Of a stretch of DNA of 64,000 bases, positions 6,386-63,770 are shown piece by piece (position 1 is the stretch's first letter; each line of letters starts with the position of its first letter). This stretch comes from Microbacterium sp. (GTDB taxonomy: Bacteria > Actinomycetota > Actinomycetes > Actinomycetales > Microbacteriaceae). The translations under genes were made by a program, and so were the position numbers. Under the pieces are notes generated by a model that had not been told where the DNA came from, ran no database searches, and saw only the letters and a list, made by a program, of their open reading frames with translations. The stretch spans positions 2,748 through 66,747 of the forward strand of contig NZ_JAYRDE010000004.1 in the NCBI RefSeq assembly GCF_041909575.1. The letters run 5' to 3'.

Positions 6386-7387
6386 TCAGATCGAGATGGG
6401 CACGACTTCGCCGGAGGCCCGCCCGTCCGCGTGCAAGAGGTGACCGAGGTGCTTCGTCGTCCGCAGCACGACCGACCGGTCCGCGATGCTCACACCGGGC
6501 AGCCGCTCTTCGATGATCGCCTCCATGCGGCCGACGTCCTGCAGCGTCCGCAGCCAGACCGCCATGATCACGTTGTACTCGCCGACCGTGTTCGCCACCA
6601 GACGCACCTCCTCGATGCGGCCGAGCTGCTCCCCGATGCGGCCGGCTATCGCAGCAGGCACCCGCAGGAAGTACCAGGCGTAGATCGGCCACGGCGTGTA
6701 CCGCCGCGCGACATCGACACGGATCGCCAGCCGACCTGATTCCCGCATCTCCGCGATGGCGTCGCGCACTCGTCGCGGGGCCATGCCGAGGCGAGACGCC
6801 AGCTCGGTGACCCCCACGCGCCCGTCGTACGCCAGCTCTGCCGCGATCGCGCTGCGCTGCTCCACCGACATGCGCACGGATGCCGAGGGTGCGCGCCGTT
6901 CCAGGCTCTCAATCCGCGCGACCTCCTGCGACGAGAGCGCGCGGAGGCGCCAGCCCCGGGCATCGCGCACCGTCTCCGAGACCAGATGAGTGCGCATCGC
7001 ACTGACTCCGGTCACGCCCCGGATGCGCTCCAGCGTCCAGATCGCGAGCGCTTCGGCATCCGGAACTGCGAGCGAAAGGAGGATGTCCCTCCCGCCGGCG
7101 GTGAGGTCGATCGTGAACGCCTCAGGGTCGTTCCCGAGCGTCTCGGCCACCGACAGGGTCTCACCAGGGCGGCATTCGATCTCGATGAGGACGAGCATTC
7201 TCGACGCCCCGCCGCCGTAGCCCGTGACGTACACGATGCCCTGCTCGACGAGCCGCGCCCACCGGCGCGACAGCGTCACGGGGTCGACGCCGACGATCGG
7301 GGCGAGGGCTCTCCACGTGGCGCGCGGACTGACCTGCACGGCATGAATGAGGCGCTGATCGACGTCATCCAGGCCAATATCCTGCAT
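6386..7387 (-). CDS. Lrp/AsnC family regulator with tandem HTH-RAM units
   Basis: LDDVDQRLIHAVQVSPRATW HTH, then a second HTH (ELAYDGRVGVTELASRLG) and effector domain; start moved to ATG 7387. Confidence 0.88.
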   Translation of the reverse strand: MQDIGLDDVDQRLIHAVQVSPRATWRALAPIVGVDPVTLSRRWARLVEQGIVYVTGYGGGASRMLVLIEIECRPGETLSVAETLGNDPEAFTIDLTAGGRDILLSLAVPDAEALAIWTLERIRGVTGVSAMRTHLVSETVRDARGWRLRALSSQEVARIESLERRAPSASVRMSVEQRSAIAAELAYDGRVGVTELASRLGMAPRRVRDAIAEMRESGRLAIRVDVARRYTPWPIYAWYFLRVPAAIAGRIGEQLGRIEEVRLVANTVGEYNVIMAVWLRTLQDVGRMEAIIEERLPGVSIADRSVVLRTTKHLGHLLHADGRASGEVVPISI

Positions 7388-56989: not shown

Positions 56990-57184
56990 TCAATAGTGCG
57001 GGGGCACGTCCTGCCTCAGGCGCTCGTCGTTCGGGCCGGTAGAGGCAGCGGATGCCGCGGCGCGGCCGGGATCCGCGGACTCGTCGCCCGCCACCGGCTC
57101 GGCGCTCGTACCGGGGGCCGGGGTCAGCCGCACCCGACGGGAACCGGGGACCCGCTCGATGCGCTGGCGCTCAGTCGGACACAT
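56990..57184 (-). CDS. Small conserved-looking hypothetical protein
   Basis: RRVRLTP..G and terminal NDERLRQDVPPHY; overlaps the stop of the upstream large gene. Confidence 0.6.
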   Translation of the reverse strand: MCPTERQRIERVPGSRRVRLTPAPGTSAEPVAGDESADPGRAAASAASTGPNDERLRQDVPPHY

Positions 57185-60100
57185 CGAGCGGCTGCGTGTC
57201 GGTCTCGACGCGCGGGGCCTCGGGCGGCACGCCGAGCATCGCGGCGATCCGCTGGGCGACTCCCGCGGGGTCGCTGTACAGGTCGAACGAGTGCACGCGA
57301 ACGTAGTGCCAGCCGAGCCGGCGCAGGATCTGCGGCCGCAGTCGCAGCGACTCGCGCAGCGATTCGCCGATCGTCTCGGGGTCGCTCTCCACGACGACCG
57401 CCTTGCCGCCGTACTGCGCGACGAGCGGCAGCAGTCCGCGGTAGTGCACGTCGACCGAGAGCCCGCAGCGACGCAGTTCGCGCGCGAGCGCGAGGGTGAG
57501 CGGATCGGCGAGATCCTCGAGGCGGGCGTCTCGCGCCCGCGCGGCGATGCCCCCGAGGATCGACATCAGGGTCGCGGCTCCGTGCTCGAGGCGTCCGTCG
57601 TCGAAGGCCGAGGGGCGGATCGACGACACGATCACCATGGACCGGCGGGCGCGCGTCATCCCGACCGTGAGCAGGCGCTCCCCGTCGGGGGTCGACAGGT
57701 CGCCGAAGTCGCTGAGCACACGGCCGTGCTTGGTGAGCCCGAATCCGAGCGAGAAGATCACCCGGTCGCGGCTCTCGGCGACGGACTCCTCGAGGCTCAG
57801 CACGGCGAACGGCTCGGCGGTGTCGCGAGAGAGGAAGTCCGCGACATCCGATCGTCCGGCGAAAGCCGCCTCGACGGACGCGCGGATCCGCTCCGCGTGC
57901 CGCGGGCTGGCTGTCACGACCATGAGCGACTCCGAGCCGCGGTTGATCGCATGCTCGACGACGAGCGTCACGACGCGCTGCACCTCGGCGTCGGGGCTCT
58001 CGACCGCGCCGGTCACGGGATCGGGGGCTCCGGTGCCGCCTTCGACGTAGTCCACGCCCAGGCTGCCGCGCCCGAGGTACGACCCGGCCCACGGCAGCGA
58101 CACGATCTCGCCGCCGTAGAAGGCGTCGTTGACGAGTTCGGCGAGGTCCTCGCCGCCGGCGCGGTAGCTGCGGGTGAGCGTCTCGACGGGCAGCAGCTCG
58201 GCGAGGCGCTCGAACACGCTGACCGCGTCGAACGGCACCTCGGGCTCCTCTGCCGGCGCACCGGCGGCGACACGGAACGGCGTGGGCTTCTGCGTCACGG
58301 GGTCGCCGAACACGACGACCTGCCGGGCGCGGCGGAGCGCAGGCGCGGCTTCCGCGAGACACAGGGCCGCGGCATCCGCGATCACCACCACGTCGAACGA
58401 CGGCGCGGCCGGCAGGAGCGGAACGTCGTAGGGCGACGCCAGCCACACCGGCGCGAGCGTCCGCGAGAGAGTCGGCGCGACCTCGGCCAGCCGCGTCGCG
58501 GAGATCTCGCCGTTCTTGAGCGCGAGCTTCAGTGCGGCGGCCTCGTCGGACTCGTCCACGATGCCGATGCGCCACTGCGTCGCCAGCTGCGATGCGAGGA
58601 GAGGTCCGGATGCCGCGGCATGGGCCTCATCGACGAGCCGGAAGTCGCGTTCCAGGCGATCGACGACGGCGGTGTTGGCTCCGAGCACCGCACGGTCGGT
58701 GCGCAACAGCTGCTCGAGCGCGGACTGCCACCACGCGTACTCGAGCTCGTCGGCGACGCGCTCCTCGGGCACGTGCCGCACCGAGAGCTCGGTGAGCAGC
58801 GGCTCGAGGCCGAGCGCGGCGAGCTCGGTGCGCAGGGTGGCGCGCTCCTTGAGGTTGTCGAACACGTCGGATTCGGCGGCGAGGCCGGCGAGCGTGCGCA
58901 CGAGCTGCTTCACGGGTAGCGTGGCGAGACGCTCGGCGCCGGTGCGGCCGAGGATGGCGTCGAGTTCGCCCAGCTCCGCCTCGACGCGCGACCAGGCGAC
59001 GTGGACGTCGGCCAGGCCGATCGGCACCTCGGGCGTGACACCGGCGTCGACGAAGCGCTGCCATTCGGTGCGCTGCTGCTGGATGCGCACGAGCGCCTCG
59101 TACATGTCGGGCACGTGCACCCCGGGGCGCACGTACTCGCGCGAGAGCCGGCGCAGGCGGCGACGGTTGGCTCCGGTCATGTTCGGCGAGTCGCGGCGGG
59201 GTCCGTGCGCCTGGATGAGCTCGCCGAGCGGCCGCTCGAAGACCGTGAGGCTGAACTTGTCGAGCGAATCCCGGATGCCCTGCAGCACCCGCAGGTACGC
59301 CCCGAGCTCGGAGATCGTGTGGAAGGGGCGCATGCGCGTCTGCGCGATGAGCTCGTAGCCGCGCTCGAGCAGGCTGGGCAGCTCGCTGCGCTGCAGCTTG
59401 CCGGCGAGGGCGTGGGCGGCGCGGGCCTCCTCCGTCGTCGCGAACGACACGCCGTACCAGGGCGAGTCGTCGGGACCGAAGCGGAACTCCCCCAGCCGTG
59501 CGGCGGCGGCGAGCTTGGCGGCCGCTTCGGTGCGCGTGTCGGCCAGGCGCTCCAGGGTCACAGCGCCGAAACGCGCCGCAGTGGTCGGCGGGTTCTCGCG
59601 CCCGGCGAGCGTCGCGAGCGCGCGCAGGATCTCGAGCACCGAGACCCCGAGGGTCGGATGCTGCGCCGTGACCGCTCCGCGATAGTCGCGCAGCACGCCC
59701 CGGAGCCGGACGAGGGCGTCGTCGATGTCGGCGACCTTGGGCTTCTCGGCCTTCTCGTTGCGGCCGATCGCGCGGATGAGGTCGGCGCGCAGGCGCCGGG
59801 GCGAGACGGCGAGGCCGGGCAGGCCGACGGCGGCGAGGCGGTGGCGGATGCCGTCGATCGTCGAGCTGCGGGCGCTCACGACGAGCACGCGCTTGCCGTC
59901 GTGCACGAGCGCCCCGACGGCGTTGATCACGGTCTGGGTGCCGCCGGTGCCGGGAAGCGTGTGGACGGCGAGCGATTGTCCCGCGGTGATGCGGGCGAGG
60001 ACGCGCTCCTGCTCGGAGTCGGCGTCGAGGAGGAGGGTGTCGGCGGCGGGCGCGCGCTCGTCGGGGCCCACCGGCTCGACGGCGTCGCGGCGCAGCTGGA

Positions 60101-60890
60101 GCGTCTCGCGATCGGCGGGGTGACCGGCGAGCGCGTTGAGCACCGGGTGGTCGAGATCCGCCGCGTCGCGCGACATCCCGCTGCCGACGTCGGCGAAGCT
60201 CGAGACGAGCAGGCGCGGCTTGACGACGTAGGAGTCGATCCAGCCGGTCAGCGCGCGCAGGTGGTCGATGACGGGCTGCGGCTTGAACACGCCGCCCTCG
60301 TAGGCCAGGGCCGCGAGGCCGGCGCCGTCGAGCTCGATCGAGAAGTGGGCGAGCATCGCGCGCACGAGTTCGGGATTGACGATGAACGAGCCGTGGAGCT
60401 TCAGCTCGAAGTCGGAGTGATGGCGGCGGATGGCGAGCGGACGGAGCAGGATCGGCGCCGAGCACTCGAGCCCGCCGATGCGCCACTGGGCGAGGCCGAC
60501 GGCGAGATGCACGGACTCGAGGCCGCGGGTGGCGCGCAGCTCGACGTTCTTCGCGGTGATCCGCTCGGCGGCCAGGCGCGCGTTGCGCAGGGCGACCTCG
60601 TCGCGGAAGAGGTTCGACAGCAGCGTGGAGCGTCCGGTGATGAACTGGGGCAGGCTGCCCGGATGCGCCTTGGTGATCTCGATCGAGGCGTCGAGCGCGT
60701 CGGTGAAGTGCAGCAGCGTCGAACGGCCGCCGAGTTCGGCGGACTCCAGCCGCAGGCGCTCGCGCTCGGGGTCGGCGATGTGCGCCACCACGACATCGGG
60801 CTCGGCGAGGCCGAGATCGCTCGGCGTCACCGCGCTGCCGTGCACAGCGTCTTCTGCGCCGGCCACGACGCTGCCTTCTGCTCGCCACAC
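57171..60890 (-). CDS. Degenerate SF1 (Upf1/DNA2-like) helicase with C-terminal Vsr/DUF559-like nuclease fold
   Basis: DADSEQ, LPGTGGTQT, ADAAA, GDP, VGMTRAR, VESD...LRRLGW; TAGTGT -10 seven nt before GTG 60890. Confidence 0.88.
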   Translation of the reverse strand: MWRAEGSVVAGAEDAVHGSAVTPSDLGLAEPDVVVAHIADPERERLRLESAELGGRSTLLHFTDALDASIEITKAHPGSLPQFITGRSTLLSNLFRDEVALRNARLAAERITAKNVELRATRGLESVHLAVGLAQWRIGGLECSAPILLRPLAIRRHHSDFELKLHGSFIVNPELVRAMLAHFSIELDGAGLAALAYEGGVFKPQPVIDHLRALTGWIDSYVVKPRLLVSSFADVGSGMSRDAADLDHPVLNALAGHPADRETLQLRRDAVEPVGPDERAPAADTLLLDADSEQERVLARITAGQSLAVHTLPGTGGTQTVINAVGALVHDGKRVLVVSARSSTIDGIRHRLAAVGLPGLAVSPRRLRADLIRAIGRNEKAEKPKVADIDDALVRLRGVLRDYRGAVTAQHPTLGVSVLEILRALATLAGRENPPTTAARFGAVTLERLADTRTEAAAKLAAAARLGEFRFGPDDSPWYGVSFATTEEARAAHALAGKLQRSELPSLLERGYELIAQTRMRPFHTISELGAYLRVLQGIRDSLDKFSLTVFERPLGELIQAHGPRRDSPNMTGANRRRLRRLSREYVRPGVHVPDMYEALVRIQQQRTEWQRFVDAGVTPEVPIGLADVHVAWSRVEAELGELDAILGRTGAERLATLPVKQLVRTLAGLAAESDVFDNLKERATLRTELAALGLEPLLTELSVRHVPEERVADELEYAWWQSALEQLLRTDRAVLGANTAVVDRLERDFRLVDEAHAAASGPLLASQLATQWRIGIVDESDEAAALKLALKNGEISATRLAEVAPTLSRTLAPVWLASPYDVPLLPAAPSFDVVVIADAAALCLAEAAPALRRARQVVVFGDPVTQKPTPFRVAAGAPAEEPEVPFDAVSVFERLAELLPVETLTRSYRAGGEDLAELVNDAFYGGEIVSLPWAGSYLGRGSLGVDYVEGGTGAPDPVTGAVESPDAEVQRVVTLVVEHAINRGSESLMVVTASPRHAERIRASVEAAFAGRSDVADFLSRDTAEPFAVLSLEESVAESRDRVIFSLGFGLTKHGRVLSDFGDLSTPDGERLLTVGMTRARRSMVIVSSIRPSAFDDGRLEHGAATLMSILGGIAARARDARLEDLADPLTLALARELRRCGLSVDVHYRGLLPLVAQYGGKAVVVESDPETIGESLRESLRLRPQILRRLGWHYVRVHSFDLYSDPAGVAQRIAAMLGVPPEAPRVETDTQPLDVSD

Positions 60891-61063
60891 ACGAGCCACA
60901 CTAAGCGGCGATCCGCCGGGCCACTTGCAGCGGCGCCGAGTTTCGCGGTATTGGGACACGCCGAGTGATCAGCCCTTCCTCCCCAGCCCGCGAGCGACGC
61001 CTCCAGCACACAGCCTGTGCCCTGTGCGATCCGCCCGTCGCCCGGTCGCGCGAGGATGGTCGC

Positions 61064-61600
61064 ATGACCTCGCCGCACCCGCCCCGGTTCCTCGTCCACC
61101 CCTCTCCGGTCGGCGATGTCCTGATCGTCACGACCGACGACGGCGTGGTCACCCTCCACCCGTTCGAGGGTCCGCTCGGCGCCGAGCTCGAGCGCGTGGC
61201 GCTGGCGTTGCGAGAGCTTCCGGTTCCCGTCGAGACGGATGCCGCGACCGGCGACCTCGCCCATATCGCCGCCGCGCAGCTCGACGAGTACTTCGACGGC
61301 GAGCGCCGCGTGTTCGACCTGCCGCTGGACTGGCGACTCGTGCGCGGATTCACCCGCTCGGCGCTCGAGGCCGTGTGCGGCATCCCGTACGGCGAGACGG
61401 CCGGGTACGGCGAGGTCGCGATCAGCGCAGGGAGCCCGCGAGCTGCGCGCGCGGTCGGGACGGCGTGCGCGACGACCCCGTTCTCGATCGTCGTGCCGGT
61501 GCACCGCGTCGTGCGGGCGGACGGCTCGCTCGGCGAGTACGGCGGCCGGCCCGAGGTGAAGCAGTACCTCATCGATCTGGAGCGTGCCGCGGGCGTGTAG
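61064..61600 (+). CDS. Ogt/AGT-fold protein lacking the catalytic Cys (alkyltransferase-like)
   Basis: LDEYFDG, IPYGET..YGEVA, RAARAVGTAC, PVHRVV, YGG..VK..L. Confidence 0.88.
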   Translation: MTSPHPPRFLVHPSPVGDVLIVTTDDGVVTLHPFEGPLGAELERVALALRELPVPVETDAATGDLAHIAAAQLDEYFDGERRVFDLPLDWRLVRGFTRSALEAVCGIPYGETAGYGEVAISAGSPRAARAVGTACATTPFSIVVPVHRVVRADGSLGEYGGRPEVKQYLIDLERAAGV

Positions 61601-61665: not shown

Positions 61666-63279
61666 TCAGTGACTGCTGGCCTTCTCCGCGCCGAAGCCGG
61701 TGAGGGAGCGCACGTCCATCTCCGCGGCCTTCCGGCGATCCTCCGCCTTGCGCGAGGTCACCGAGCCGAGCCAGCCGAGGAAGAACCCGAGCGGGATCGA
61801 CACGATGCCGGGGTTGTTGAGCGGCCAGATGGGTGTGCCGACCTTGAATACGCTCGTCTCGCTCCCCCAGAACACCGGGGACAGGAAGATGAGGATCACC
61901 GCGGCGGCGAGGCCGCCGTACATGCTCCACACCGCGCCCCGCGTGGTGAACCGGCGCCAGAACAGCGAGTAGAGGATCGTCGGCAGGTTGGCCGAGGCCG
62001 CCACCGCGAAGGCGAGCGCCACGAGGAACGCGACGTTCTGACCCTGCACGCCGATGCCGCCGAGGATCGCGAGGATGCCGATCACGATCACGGTGCGACG
62101 GGCGACCTTGACCTCGCCGTCCGGCGGGACGTTCCCCTTCTTCACGACGTTCGCGTAGATGTCGTGCGCGAACGACGCCGCTGCCGTGATCGTGAGGCCC
62201 GCGACGACCGCGAGGATCGTGGCGAACGCGACCGCGGAGATGAACCCGAGCAGGATCGGTCCGCCGAGCTCCAGCGCGAGCAGCGGGGCGGCGGAGTTGA
62301 CCCCGCCGGGAGCGGCGGCGATCGCCTCGGGGCCGACGAGCGCGCCGGCACCGTAGCCGAGGACGAGGGTCAGCAGGTAGAAGAGGCCGATCAACCAGAT
62401 CGCCCACACCACCGAGCGACGCGCCTCCTTGGCGGTGGGCACCGTGTAGAACCGCATCAGCACGTGCGGGAGGCCCGCGGTGCCGAGCACGAGGGCGATC
62501 GCGAGCGAGATGAAGTCCCACGGGTTGGCGCCGTACTGCAGTCCGGGTCCGAGGATGGCTTCGCCCTGCGGCGAGGCGGCGACGGCGTTCTCGAGGAGGG
62601 TGTTGAGGCTGAACCCGTTGATCGCGAGCACCCAGATGGTCATGACGAGCGCGCCGCCGATGAGGAGGAACGCCTTCACGATCTGCACCCAGGTCGTGCC
62701 CTTCATGCCGCCGACGAGCACGTAGACGATCATGAGCACGCCCACGACGGCGACGACGATCGACTGCCCGAGCTGCTCGGTGATGCCGAGCAGGAGCGAC
62801 ACGAGGCCGCCGGCGCCGGCCATCTGCGCGAGCAGGTAGAAGAAGCAGACGGCGAGCGTCGTGATCGCCGCGGCCATGCGCACCGGGCGCTCCTTGAGGC
62901 GGAACGACAGCACGTCGGCCATCGTGAACTTGCCGGTGTTGCGCATGAGCTCGGCGACGAGCAGCAGCGCGACCAGCCAGGCAACGAGGAATCCGATCGA
63001 GTAGAGGAAGCCGTCGTAGCCGTTGATGGCGATGGCGCCGCAGATGCCGAGGAACGACGCCGCGGACAGGTAGTCGCCGGAGATCGCGAAGCCGTTCTGG
63101 GGTCCGGTGAACGAGCGTCCGGCGGCGTAGTAGTCCGCCGCCGTCTTGTTGTTGCGGCTCGCGCGGATCACGATGAACAGCGTCACGGCGACGAACGCAC
63201 CGAAGATCGAGATGTTGAGGATGGGGTTGTTCTCGGTCGTGGTCACGGCCGCCTCGACCGCGGTGAAGAACTCATTCAT
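61666..63279 (-). CDS. actP: Cation/acetate symporter (SSS family)
   Basis: DYYAAGR, NGFAISGDYLSAASFLG, GGMKGTTWVQ, GTAGLPH.LMRFYTVP; start ATG 63279. Confidence 0.92.
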   Translation of the reverse strand: MNEFFTAVEAAVTTTENNPILNISIFGAFVAVTLFIVIRASRNNKTAADYYAAGRSFTGPQNGFAISGDYLSAASFLGICGAIAINGYDGFLYSIGFLVAWLVALLLVAELMRNTGKFTMADVLSFRLKERPVRMAAAITTLAVCFFYLLAQMAGAGGLVSLLLGITEQLGQSIVVAVVGVLMIVYVLVGGMKGTTWVQIVKAFLLIGGALVMTIWVLAINGFSLNTLLENAVAASPQGEAILGPGLQYGANPWDFISLAIALVLGTAGLPHVLMRFYTVPTAKEARRSVVWAIWLIGLFYLLTLVLGYGAGALVGPEAIAAAPGGVNSAAPLLALELGGPILLGFISAVAFATILAVVAGLTITAAASFAHDIYANVVKKGNVPPDGEVKVARRTVIVIGILAILGGIGVQGQNVAFLVALAFAVAASANLPTILYSLFWRRFTTRGAVWSMYGGLAAAVILIFLSPVFWGSETSVFKVGTPIWPLNNPGIVSIPLGFFLGWLGSVTSRKAEDRRKAAEMDVRSLTGFGAEKASSH

Positions 63280-63629
63280 ACGGAGGCCTCCTGCTGCTGC
63301 TCGAGCCCGTCGCGGATCTCCTCGGAGATCGGGTCGAGCTTGCGGTTGGCGTACCAGACGTAGGTCATGGTGATCGCGAAGGTGGTGACGAACTGGCCGA
63401 GCCCGAAGATCAGGCCGACGGTGATGTCGCCCCACACGCGCTGCGCCATGAAGTCCGGCGCGAAGGACGAGAGCAGGACGTACGCGAAGTACCAGACGAG
63501 GAACGCGATCGCCATGGGGAACACGAACCCGCGATGGCGACGCTTGAGCTCGACGAACGGGGGCGATTCCTCGACCGCGATGTAGTCGATTCCGCCGGGT
63601 GGGGCGGTGTCGATCCGGGGATCGGACAT
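63276..63629 (-). CDS. DUF485 membrane protein (YjcH-like)
   Basis: F..L.RR.R.F.FP, FGLGQF, Y..YAN..LDP; ATGA overlap with actP. Confidence 0.9.
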   Translation of the reverse strand: MSDPRIDTAPPGGIDYIAVEESPPFVELKRRHRGFVFPMAIAFLVWYFAYVLLSSFAPDFMAQRVWGDITVGLIFGLGQFVTTFAITMTYVWYANRKLDPISEEIRDGLEQQQEASV

Positions 63630-63770
63630 GTGGCCTCCTTGCCTCATGGACGGGCGCGCCGATGCGCCCGGTGGGGAGCCCGGGCGGCGGGGCGAGCGGC
63701 CGACCCGGGTGGTAAGGTCGACGCTACGAAAAGCGGCGAGGACGCCGTCACCCCCGGAAGTAGGTAGTGC

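Follow-up and report, generated by a model that had tools for sequence, protein, structure and literature searches.

A Microbacterium Ogt homologue with valine in place of the acceptor cysteine: candidate for a non-catalytic alkyl-lesion binder

What remains for a suicide DNA repair enzyme to do once the residue that accepts the alkyl group has been lost? This question is raised by a gene in a stretch of 64,000 nucleotides from Microbacterium sp. (contig NZ_JAYRDE010000004.1; the window), which encodes a 178-residue homologue of the O6-alkylguanine-DNA alkyltransferases (AGTs; EC 2.1.1.63), the family comprising Ogt, the Ada-C domain and human AGT (hAGT or MGMT). A motif with the nucleophilic cysteine is encoded by all AGT genes (Tessmer and Margison, 2023; PMC10779285). 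Where the alkyltransferases have I/V-P-C-H-R-V/I, the protein studied here reads V-P-V-H-R-V, and we refer to it as the PVHR protein. Since its acceptor site is altered, the defining AGT reaction is impossible at the canonical site and, judged from its sequence, the term cysteine methyltransferase, taken in its defining sense, cannot apply to it. On balance we favor the reading that it is a non-catalytic binder of alkyl lesions with a place in the alkylation-damage response.

The altered positions are defined by alignment to proteins of solved structure. The segment RAVGTACATTPFSIVVPVHRVV aligns without gaps to RAVGLANGHNPIAIIVPCHRVI of Mycobacterium tuberculosis OGT (MtOGT) and RAVASACAANKLAIVIPCHRVV of Escherichia coli Ada-C (HMMER), and V146 is therefore assigned to the site of the acceptor Cys and T138 to that of the Asn hinge. 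An earlier note on this DNA had described a two-domain protein with Val for the acceptor Cys, a changed Asn hinge and an intact DNA-binding helix-turn-helix (HTH) with its arginine finger, and this description is borne out in every part. The note had also allowed for a sequencing error or a private mutation and proposed a survey of homologues. The GTG codon disagrees with the Cys codons TGY at each of its three positions, so that a single-base error provides no explanation for the Val. PVHR is present in all of the 120 closest homologues (69-100% identity, many from named Microbacterium species), taken as the best matches in a search of 5.8 billion clustered proteins. A scan of loci, for which one genome per species was used, yielded 454 stretches encoding a relative; among the best 80, which were read, 79 have PVHR and one has PAHR. 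Two more complete genomes also encode PAHR; Ala replaces Val in three lineages. The best 80 loci stem from Microbacterium save for a few metagenome-assembled genomes of Actinomycetota or Actinomycetes and a single record that bears the name Frigoribacterium sp. JB110. With all three codon positions changed and the residue kept in more than 140 species, both sequencing error and private mutation were rejected.

The loss of the Cys does not stand alone. When 95 members of the PVHR clade were compared with 133 relatives carrying PCHR, position 146 was found to be Val in 94 and Ala in one of the former and Cys in all of the latter. The hinge position 138 is Thr or Ser in 92 of the 95 clade members as opposed to Asn in 131 of the 133 relatives, position 140 is Phe in 81 clade members versus Leu, Ile or Val in the relatives, and position 141, the site of hAGT Pro140, is Ser in 93 versus Pro in 104. 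At positions 162-163 the clade has an insertion of His or Arg followed by Pro where 125 of the relatives show a gap. The clade-specific differences are few and all of them lie in elements lining the lesion pocket. They add up to a five-part signature consisting of C146V, N138T/S, L/I/V140F, P141S and the two-residue insertion in the active-site loop. On the other hand, Y115, R129, H147, R148, Y159, K166 and E173, the equivalents of hAGT Y114, R128, H146, R147, Y158, K165 and E172, are common to the clade and the PCHR relatives and essentially invariant (Y159 is kept in 92 of the 95). Across the 84 species of the genus set Y115, R129, C135, P139, P145, H147, R148, Y159 and K166 do not vary at all. 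The HTH, arginine finger and base-flipping Tyr expected of an alkyltransferase are consequently all in place. Because the binding residues have long been retained and the hinge and loop have been remodelled in a co-ordinated manner, the protein probably still engages a flipped base without reacting with it.

The fold is that of a complete AGT. Both the N-terminal domain PF02870 (25 bits, cut-off 21) and the C-terminal domain PF01035 (92.4 bits) score above their Pfam cut-offs. Among the NCBIfam models only the superfamily model TIGR00589 matches, and neither the Ogt nor the Ada equivalog model comes near its cut-off. AlphaFold2, supplied with an alignment of 41 sequences, gave a confident model (pLDDT 93.1, pTM 0.88) with an N-terminal domain of three strands plus helices that aligns with those of MtOGT and hAGT. 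Foldseek matches the model with the complete chains of MtOGT, Ada-C and hAGT along about 172 columns (for MtOGT 172 columns and a TM of 0.84, scaled to MtOGT length), whereas the single-domain structures of Atl1 and vpAtl align over just 83-86 columns of the 178-residue protein. The start codon is placed at position 61064 of the window because a GAGGA Shine-Dalgarno sequence and the ATG are kept in orthologous loci; the pattern A.GATGG...CATGA recurs across the upstream regions of the orthologues (alignment of 42). A longer open reading frame of 211 aa from GTG 60965 was rejected, as the homologues start at ATG 61064 with the conserved Shine-Dalgarno sequence before it.

Within the genus the gene is nearly universal. 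In 151 genomes drawn evenly from the same GTDB genus, a full-length copy (full-length match with at least 48% identity) is present in about 143. Four genomes (our labels G203, G234, G256 and G340) have split or truncated copies, which may be real pseudogenes or assembly errors, and the remaining non-carriers are incomplete assemblies. The copy in G203 (L118; C3:1191742-1191945) has a stop 5' of residue ~107 and its N-terminal domain is out of frame.

Beyond the genus the variant is rare. In 17 other genera of the Microbacteriaceae the best homologue is the canonical enzyme, RAVGTACATNPLP..PCHR. HMMER, run exhaustively against 1.84 billion representatives, returned about 34,700 homologues, and the best 150 clusters at 50% identity were read. 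Sixteen of these are PVHR clusters, none of which has the hinge Asn, and 128 are PCHR clusters, in which the hinge Asn is present in all but two, those two having Cys there. Unnamed sequences from metagenomes diverge most among the PVHR members, and Kocuria soli and Kocuria sp. JC486, together in one small cluster, are the sole named PVHR members found outside Microbacterium. The K. soli gene (L119 6001-6567), which lies outside the Microbacteriaceae, is divergent, has the hinge 'KNVP' and could result from horizontal transfer or represent a very old lineage. A class-wide scan of DNA from 401 genomes of 174 genera for the pattern [IV]PVHR[IV][IV]R matched all 8 Microbacterium genomes; outside Microbacterium 9 genomes matched as compared to 8 for the reversed control pattern, that is about the control rate, and the four matches inspected were not AGT genes. 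Apart from rare outliers, the variant is in essence a derived character shared by the members of Microbacterium.

A maximum likelihood tree of 175 sequences places the PVHR proteins among the actinobacterial two-domain Ogts, with actinobacterial PCHR Ogts as their nearest relatives. All 41 Cys-less sequences form one clade (SH-aLRT 84), and the support amounts to 98 when the clade is set against four PCHR outgroup sequences from other genera of the Microbacteriaceae. After removal of the columns that define the trait, a short free tree search scattered six long-branch members, but a tree uniting all 41 was better by 152 log-likelihood units (p-AU 0.98). These trees support the view that the Cys-less proteins arose once. 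Orthology with the RAVGTACATNPLP..PCHR Ogts seems less likely, as forcing a clade with those 17 sequences costs 166 log-likelihood units (p-AU 0.022); the test is confounded, since the 17 are themselves not monophyletic and the free tree stems from a short search.

A canonical Ogt accompanies the PVHR protein in the genomes checked. The genome to which the window belongs contains exactly two genes with PF01035, the one studied here and, on another contig, a gene for a canonical Ogt with PCHR and the Asn hinge (ASICARNAPALFVPCHRVL); the separate enzyme that the earlier note wished to see looked for is thus present. It is encoded directly 3' of a gene for a protein with AraC-type HTH and AlkA_N domains. 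Such an arrangement is of the adaptive-response type and suggests an adaptive-response-like operon. The Cys-less protein and a canonical PCHR Ogt also occur together in each of the 8 other Microbacterium genomes checked, and a division of labor between the two is possible. At least one PCHR relative from another genus (L006) also adjoins an AlkA-like gene, as seen in other genera by crude and noisy open reading frame calling from GC content at third codon positions (GC3).

The protein shares features with three groups of known proteins. Like canonical AGTs (MtOGT, 4BHB/4WX9; E. coli Ada-C, 1SFE; Ogt; hAGT/MGMT, 1EH6 and 1T38) it has the two-domain fold, the HTH, the arginine finger, the equivalents of Tyr114, Tyr158 and Lys165 as well as the His and Glu residues. 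It differs from them by Val for Cys, Thr or Ser at the hinge, Ser at the site of hAGT Pro140, Phe before it and the two-residue loop insertion. The second group consists of the alkyltransferase-like proteins (ATLs), which have neither the Cys nor the Asn hinge but conserve HTH, arginine finger and Tyr (Tessmer and Margison, 2023; PMC10779285). ATLs have no transferase activity and interact directly with UvrA and UvrC; they are defined as lacking the N-terminal domain and mostly have Trp at the Cys site (PMC10779285). With ATLs such as Schizosaccharomyces pombe Atl1 (3GVA/3GX4), E. coli YbaZ/eATL, Vibrio parahaemolyticus vpAtl (2KIF) and Thermus thermophilus TTHA1564 the PVHR protein shares a homologous C-terminal domain without acceptor Cys, a lost or remodelled hinge and the retained HTH, arginine finger and Tyr. 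Yet its Cys is replaced by Val or, rarely, Ala rather than Trp, it possesses the N-terminal domain, and with 178 residues it is larger than the single-domain ATLs of ~110 residues, which usually have PWHR, a capping loop and a large hydrophobic pocket.

The earlier note had placed the protein among the ATLs, and this assignment does not hold. MtOGT is its best match among solved structures (E 2e-22, as compared to 4e-8 for Atl1), and its nearest relatives are actinobacterial PCHR Ogts rather than members of the Atl1/YbaZ clade, with which common descent was not found. Because the protein originated within the radiation of actinobacterial Ogts, the resemblance to ATLs is convergence and not family membership. 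The third group comprises engineered inactive AGTs (hAGT C145A/C145S, S. solfataricus OGT C119L/C119F, 4ZYH and 5LLQ, and S. tokodaii C120S, 7CSM), which also combine the full fold with a non-nucleophilic residue. According to the titles of the PDB entries, some of these structures are complexes with O6-methyl substrates, that is, DNA with the lesion is still bound. These are laboratory point mutants in a catalytic background, whereas the PVHR protein is natural, old and found throughout a genus, and has changes in hinge and loop in addition. Among the papers that were searched in full text, none describes an AGT homologue with PVHR or PVHRV.

Taken together, we propose the following mechanism. 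The PVHR protein would be a pseudo-enzyme of the AGT/Ogt family which keeps the full fold and the DNA-binding and base-flipping machinery, and in which canonical alkyl acceptance is blocked by the Val and hinge and active-site loop have been remodelled alongside. It would bind O6-alkylguanine-type lesions stoichiometrically and non-covalently. By analogy with ATLs it may then mark them for another pathway, most plausibly excision repair by UvrABC, and the canonical PCHR Ogt, whose gene lies elsewhere in the genome, would take care of direct reversal.

Several observations weigh against this proposal. The broken copies in about four of the 151 genomes mean that the gene is dispensable in some lineages. 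The pairwise dN/dS (Nei-Gojobori, 3,437 pairs) has a rather high median of 0.46, and the median of 0.67 for the N-terminal domain indicates relaxation in comparison with the C-terminal domain (0.28). Purifying selection on the C-terminal domain is nevertheless clear and speaks for the proposal; constraint is weaker on the N-terminal domain, the half in which AGTs in general are less conserved. The large Trp-lined pocket and the C-terminal loop of the classical ATLs are missing. In the 42 orthologous upstream regions the best matches to the actinobacterial LexA box and the RecA-NDp motif are no better than in shuffled controls, so that there is no sign of damage-inducible expression. Linkage to tag, the gene for 3-methyladenine DNA glycosylase I (PF03352), speaks for the proposal but is confined to one part of the tree. 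The gene lies directly 3' on the same strand in 7 of the best 80 loci and overlaps the stop codon of the PVHR gene in L124 and L125, which belong to a metagenomic lineage; the tag-linked loci represent three sub-lineages from one poorly resolved region of the tree, and the linkage may have arisen just once. Finally, Edara (1999), as cited in PMC10779285, found that inactive hAGT C145A raised killing and mutation by N-methyl-N'-nitro-N-nitrosoguanidine in E. coli; a two-domain AGT without its Cys can therefore shield lesions instead of promoting their repair.

The last point leads to the alternative that survives best, namely that the protein binds DNA to another end. It could shield lesions or compete with Ogt, recognize another modified base, or mimic spent Ogt in a signalling or regulatory role. 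The shielding by inactive hAGT, as reported through that citation, fits this idea, and the remodelled parts are exactly the hinge and the active-site loop. According to PDB titles S. solfataricus OGT has been crystallized with the hydrophobic residues of C119L and C119F at the Cys site. These substitutions were reportedly made to mimic the alkylated state. However, we know of no role for a spent Ogt in bacteria, a purely harmful shielding protein would not persist genus-wide, and every residue contacting the flipped guanine is unchanged. We therefore regard this alternative as unlikely.

A different reading starts from the neighbor transcribed in the opposite direction, a protein of 1262 residues resembling helicases/nucleases of superfamily 1. 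It gives weak signals for DUF4011, AAA_11, AAA_12 and MTES_1575, all far below cut-off, and shows distant similarity to the models of the anti-phage proteins ProA and Hhe, also far below their cut-offs. Its homologues (~72% identity) align just from about residue 24. The two proteins might form a module, in which the Ogt-like partner recognizes a feature of DNA and recruits or regulates a ProA/Hhe-like partner with a dead Walker A motif. In line with this, the genes stand head-to-head in all 78 Microbacterium loci that have upstream DNA, while the gene downstream varies (an acetate-type symporter with DUF485, a LuxR-type regulator, tag and others). The same arrangement is found in the basal member P0128, and the Walker A motif reads PGTGGTQT, with Gly for Lys, in 76 of 76 Microbacterium orthologues. 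On the other hand, the neighbor is a core gene, present in 121 of 121 Microbacteriaceae genomes including those of 0.9-1.5 Mb, and no Ogt-like gene lies beside it in the 17 loci from other genera that were examined. An oxidoreductase gene intervenes in the P0127 lineage, and the PVHR gene of K. soli is flanked by unrelated genes instead of a helicase-like one (a PhzF-like gene, a GFO/IDH/MocA gene and a gene for a 292-residue protein of no assigned family). Inherited gene order alone would keep a gene next to a core gene throughout one genus, and the pairing is probably due to just that. Because the neighbor is core, the P0127 lineage has an insertion and the Kocuria context is unrelated, the case for a real functional link is weakened and its chance is small. 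A module of this kind thus appears quite improbable. There is a slim chance only for the related idea of a second kind of alkyl-lesion sensor, independent of ATLs, that is built on the two-domain Ogt scaffold with Val at the Cys site, a Thr hinge and a longer active-site loop, and that forms with the ATPase-dead ProA/Hhe-like neighbor an undescribed pair for the processing of lesions or modified bases rather than feeding ordinary nucleotide excision repair. As gene context the tag linkage is more suggestive than the pairing with the helicase-like gene.

The PVHR protein could also still transfer alkyl groups by means of a different nucleophile. The most obvious candidate is the invariant C135, located at the site of hAGT Met134 in the lining of the base-binding cleft. 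This Cys, which the earlier note had singled out as a possible replacement acceptor, occurs in all 95 clade members and just 87 of the 133 PCHR relatives. H147 and E173, the pair by which the nucleophile of true AGTs is activated, are likewise retained. However, C135 has a counterpart in Ada-C of E. coli ('ASACAAN') as well as in the majority of canonical relatives, in which the Cys of PCHR is the acceptor; it is hence ancestral, and the idea of a newly gained acceptor is not supported. H147, R148 and E173 are invariant in the canonical relatives too, so that their retention need not mean catalysis, and the Ala found at the Cys site in three lineages fits a passive small hydrophobic residue. 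Pocket geometry also matters, as restoration of the Cys in E. coli ATL did not bring back activity (PMC10779285). Transfer to C135 is accordingly very improbable, and a non-catalytic lesion binder remains our preferred reading.

That the gene is a decaying, functionless relic of an Ogt duplicate, as the four genomes with broken copies and the dN/dS of the N-terminal domain might suggest, is hardly credible in view of a frame intact in about 143 of 151 species, 30 invariant positions in the 41-sequence alignment, the low dN/dS of the C-terminal domain, a co-ordinated five-part signature fixed across the clade, and a conserved Shine-Dalgarno sequence and start codon.

The earlier note had expected the protein to be mis-annotated, and every named homologue is indeed termed 'methylated-DNA--[protein]-cysteine S-methyltransferase'. 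For hundreds of Microbacterium proteins the annotation names an activity that the motif cannot support; models such as TIGR00589 ignore the motif. ATLs bridge direct reversal and excision repair. If the PVHR protein is a lesion binder, convergence would have led to Cys-less AGT proteins by a second route, beside that of the single-domain and mostly Trp-type ATLs. The protein would be a natural experiment in which a suicide enzyme was turned into a binder, and with canonical and Cys-less paralogues in one cell the changes of the pocket that make a sensor from such an enzyme can be compared.

Table 1. Features of the PVHR locus and of related loci. Positions refer to the window unless a locus label is given.
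Feature	Position	Strand	Remarks
Cys-less two-domain Ogt paralogue, coding sequence	61064..61600	+	178 aa plus stop; translated open reading frame
Shine-Dalgarno sequence GAGGA	61052..61056	+	7 nt 5' of ATG; orthologue alignment
N-terminal AGT domain (Methyltransf_1N, PF02870), aa 13-89	61100..61330	+	Pfam, model
C-terminal DNA-binding / lesion-pocket domain (PF01035), aa 96-174	61349..61585	+	Pfam
Y115, base-flipping tyrosine (hAGT Y114 equivalent)	61406..61408	+	84/84 in genus set; 133/133 PCHR relatives
R129, arginine finger (hAGT R128)	61448..61450	+	invariant, 84/84 and 95/95
C135, 'GTAC' cysteine at hAGT M134 position	61466..61468	+	95/95 PVHR clade; 87/133 PCHR relatives
Remodelled Asn-hinge segment T138-P139-F140-S141	61475..61486	+	canonical N-P-[LIV]-P; clade comparison
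T138, replacement of hinge Asn	61475-61477	+	alignment to MtOGT and Ada-C
P145-V146-H147-R148 motif	61496..61507	+	codons CCG GTG CAC CGC
V146, in place of acceptor Cys	61499-61501	+	GTG
Active-site loop Y159-G-G-R162-P163	61538..61552	+	2-residue clade-specific insertion at 162-163
E173, partner of His (hAGT E172 equivalent)	61580..61582	+	94/95 clade; 131/133 relatives
SF1 helicase/nuclease-like protein, divergent neighbor	57171..60959	-	1262 aa; start codon uncertain
Two short conserved motifs	60941-60954 and 60977-60985		divergent region; upstream-region alignment
Sodium:solute symporter (PF00474, 323 bits)	61666-63435	-	convergent with PVHR gene
DUF485 membrane protein preceding symporter	63276-63665	-
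AraC-HTH/AlkA_N gene and canonical Ogt	L002 (G000 contig C42) 2-1252 and 1249-1758		4-base overlap
tag loci	L054, L071, L074, L080, L083, L092, L099 (about 6500-7200); L124 6797-7510	same strand	

The remaining features of the locus are listed in Table 1 as well. Two DNA motifs, TTTCGCGGTATTGG and TCCTCCCCA (GGAGGA on the minus strand), are conserved throughout the genus in the region between the divergent genes. Both are located 5' of, or inside, the beginning of the helicase-like open reading frame, which is poorly conserved there; a promoter, the Shine-Dalgarno sequence of a small upstream open reading frame and a leader are candidates for their function. Downstream of the PVHR gene and convergent with it, the symporter and DUF485 genes form the usual pair of the ActP/YjcH type, and this pair is found in only about half of the orthologous loci.

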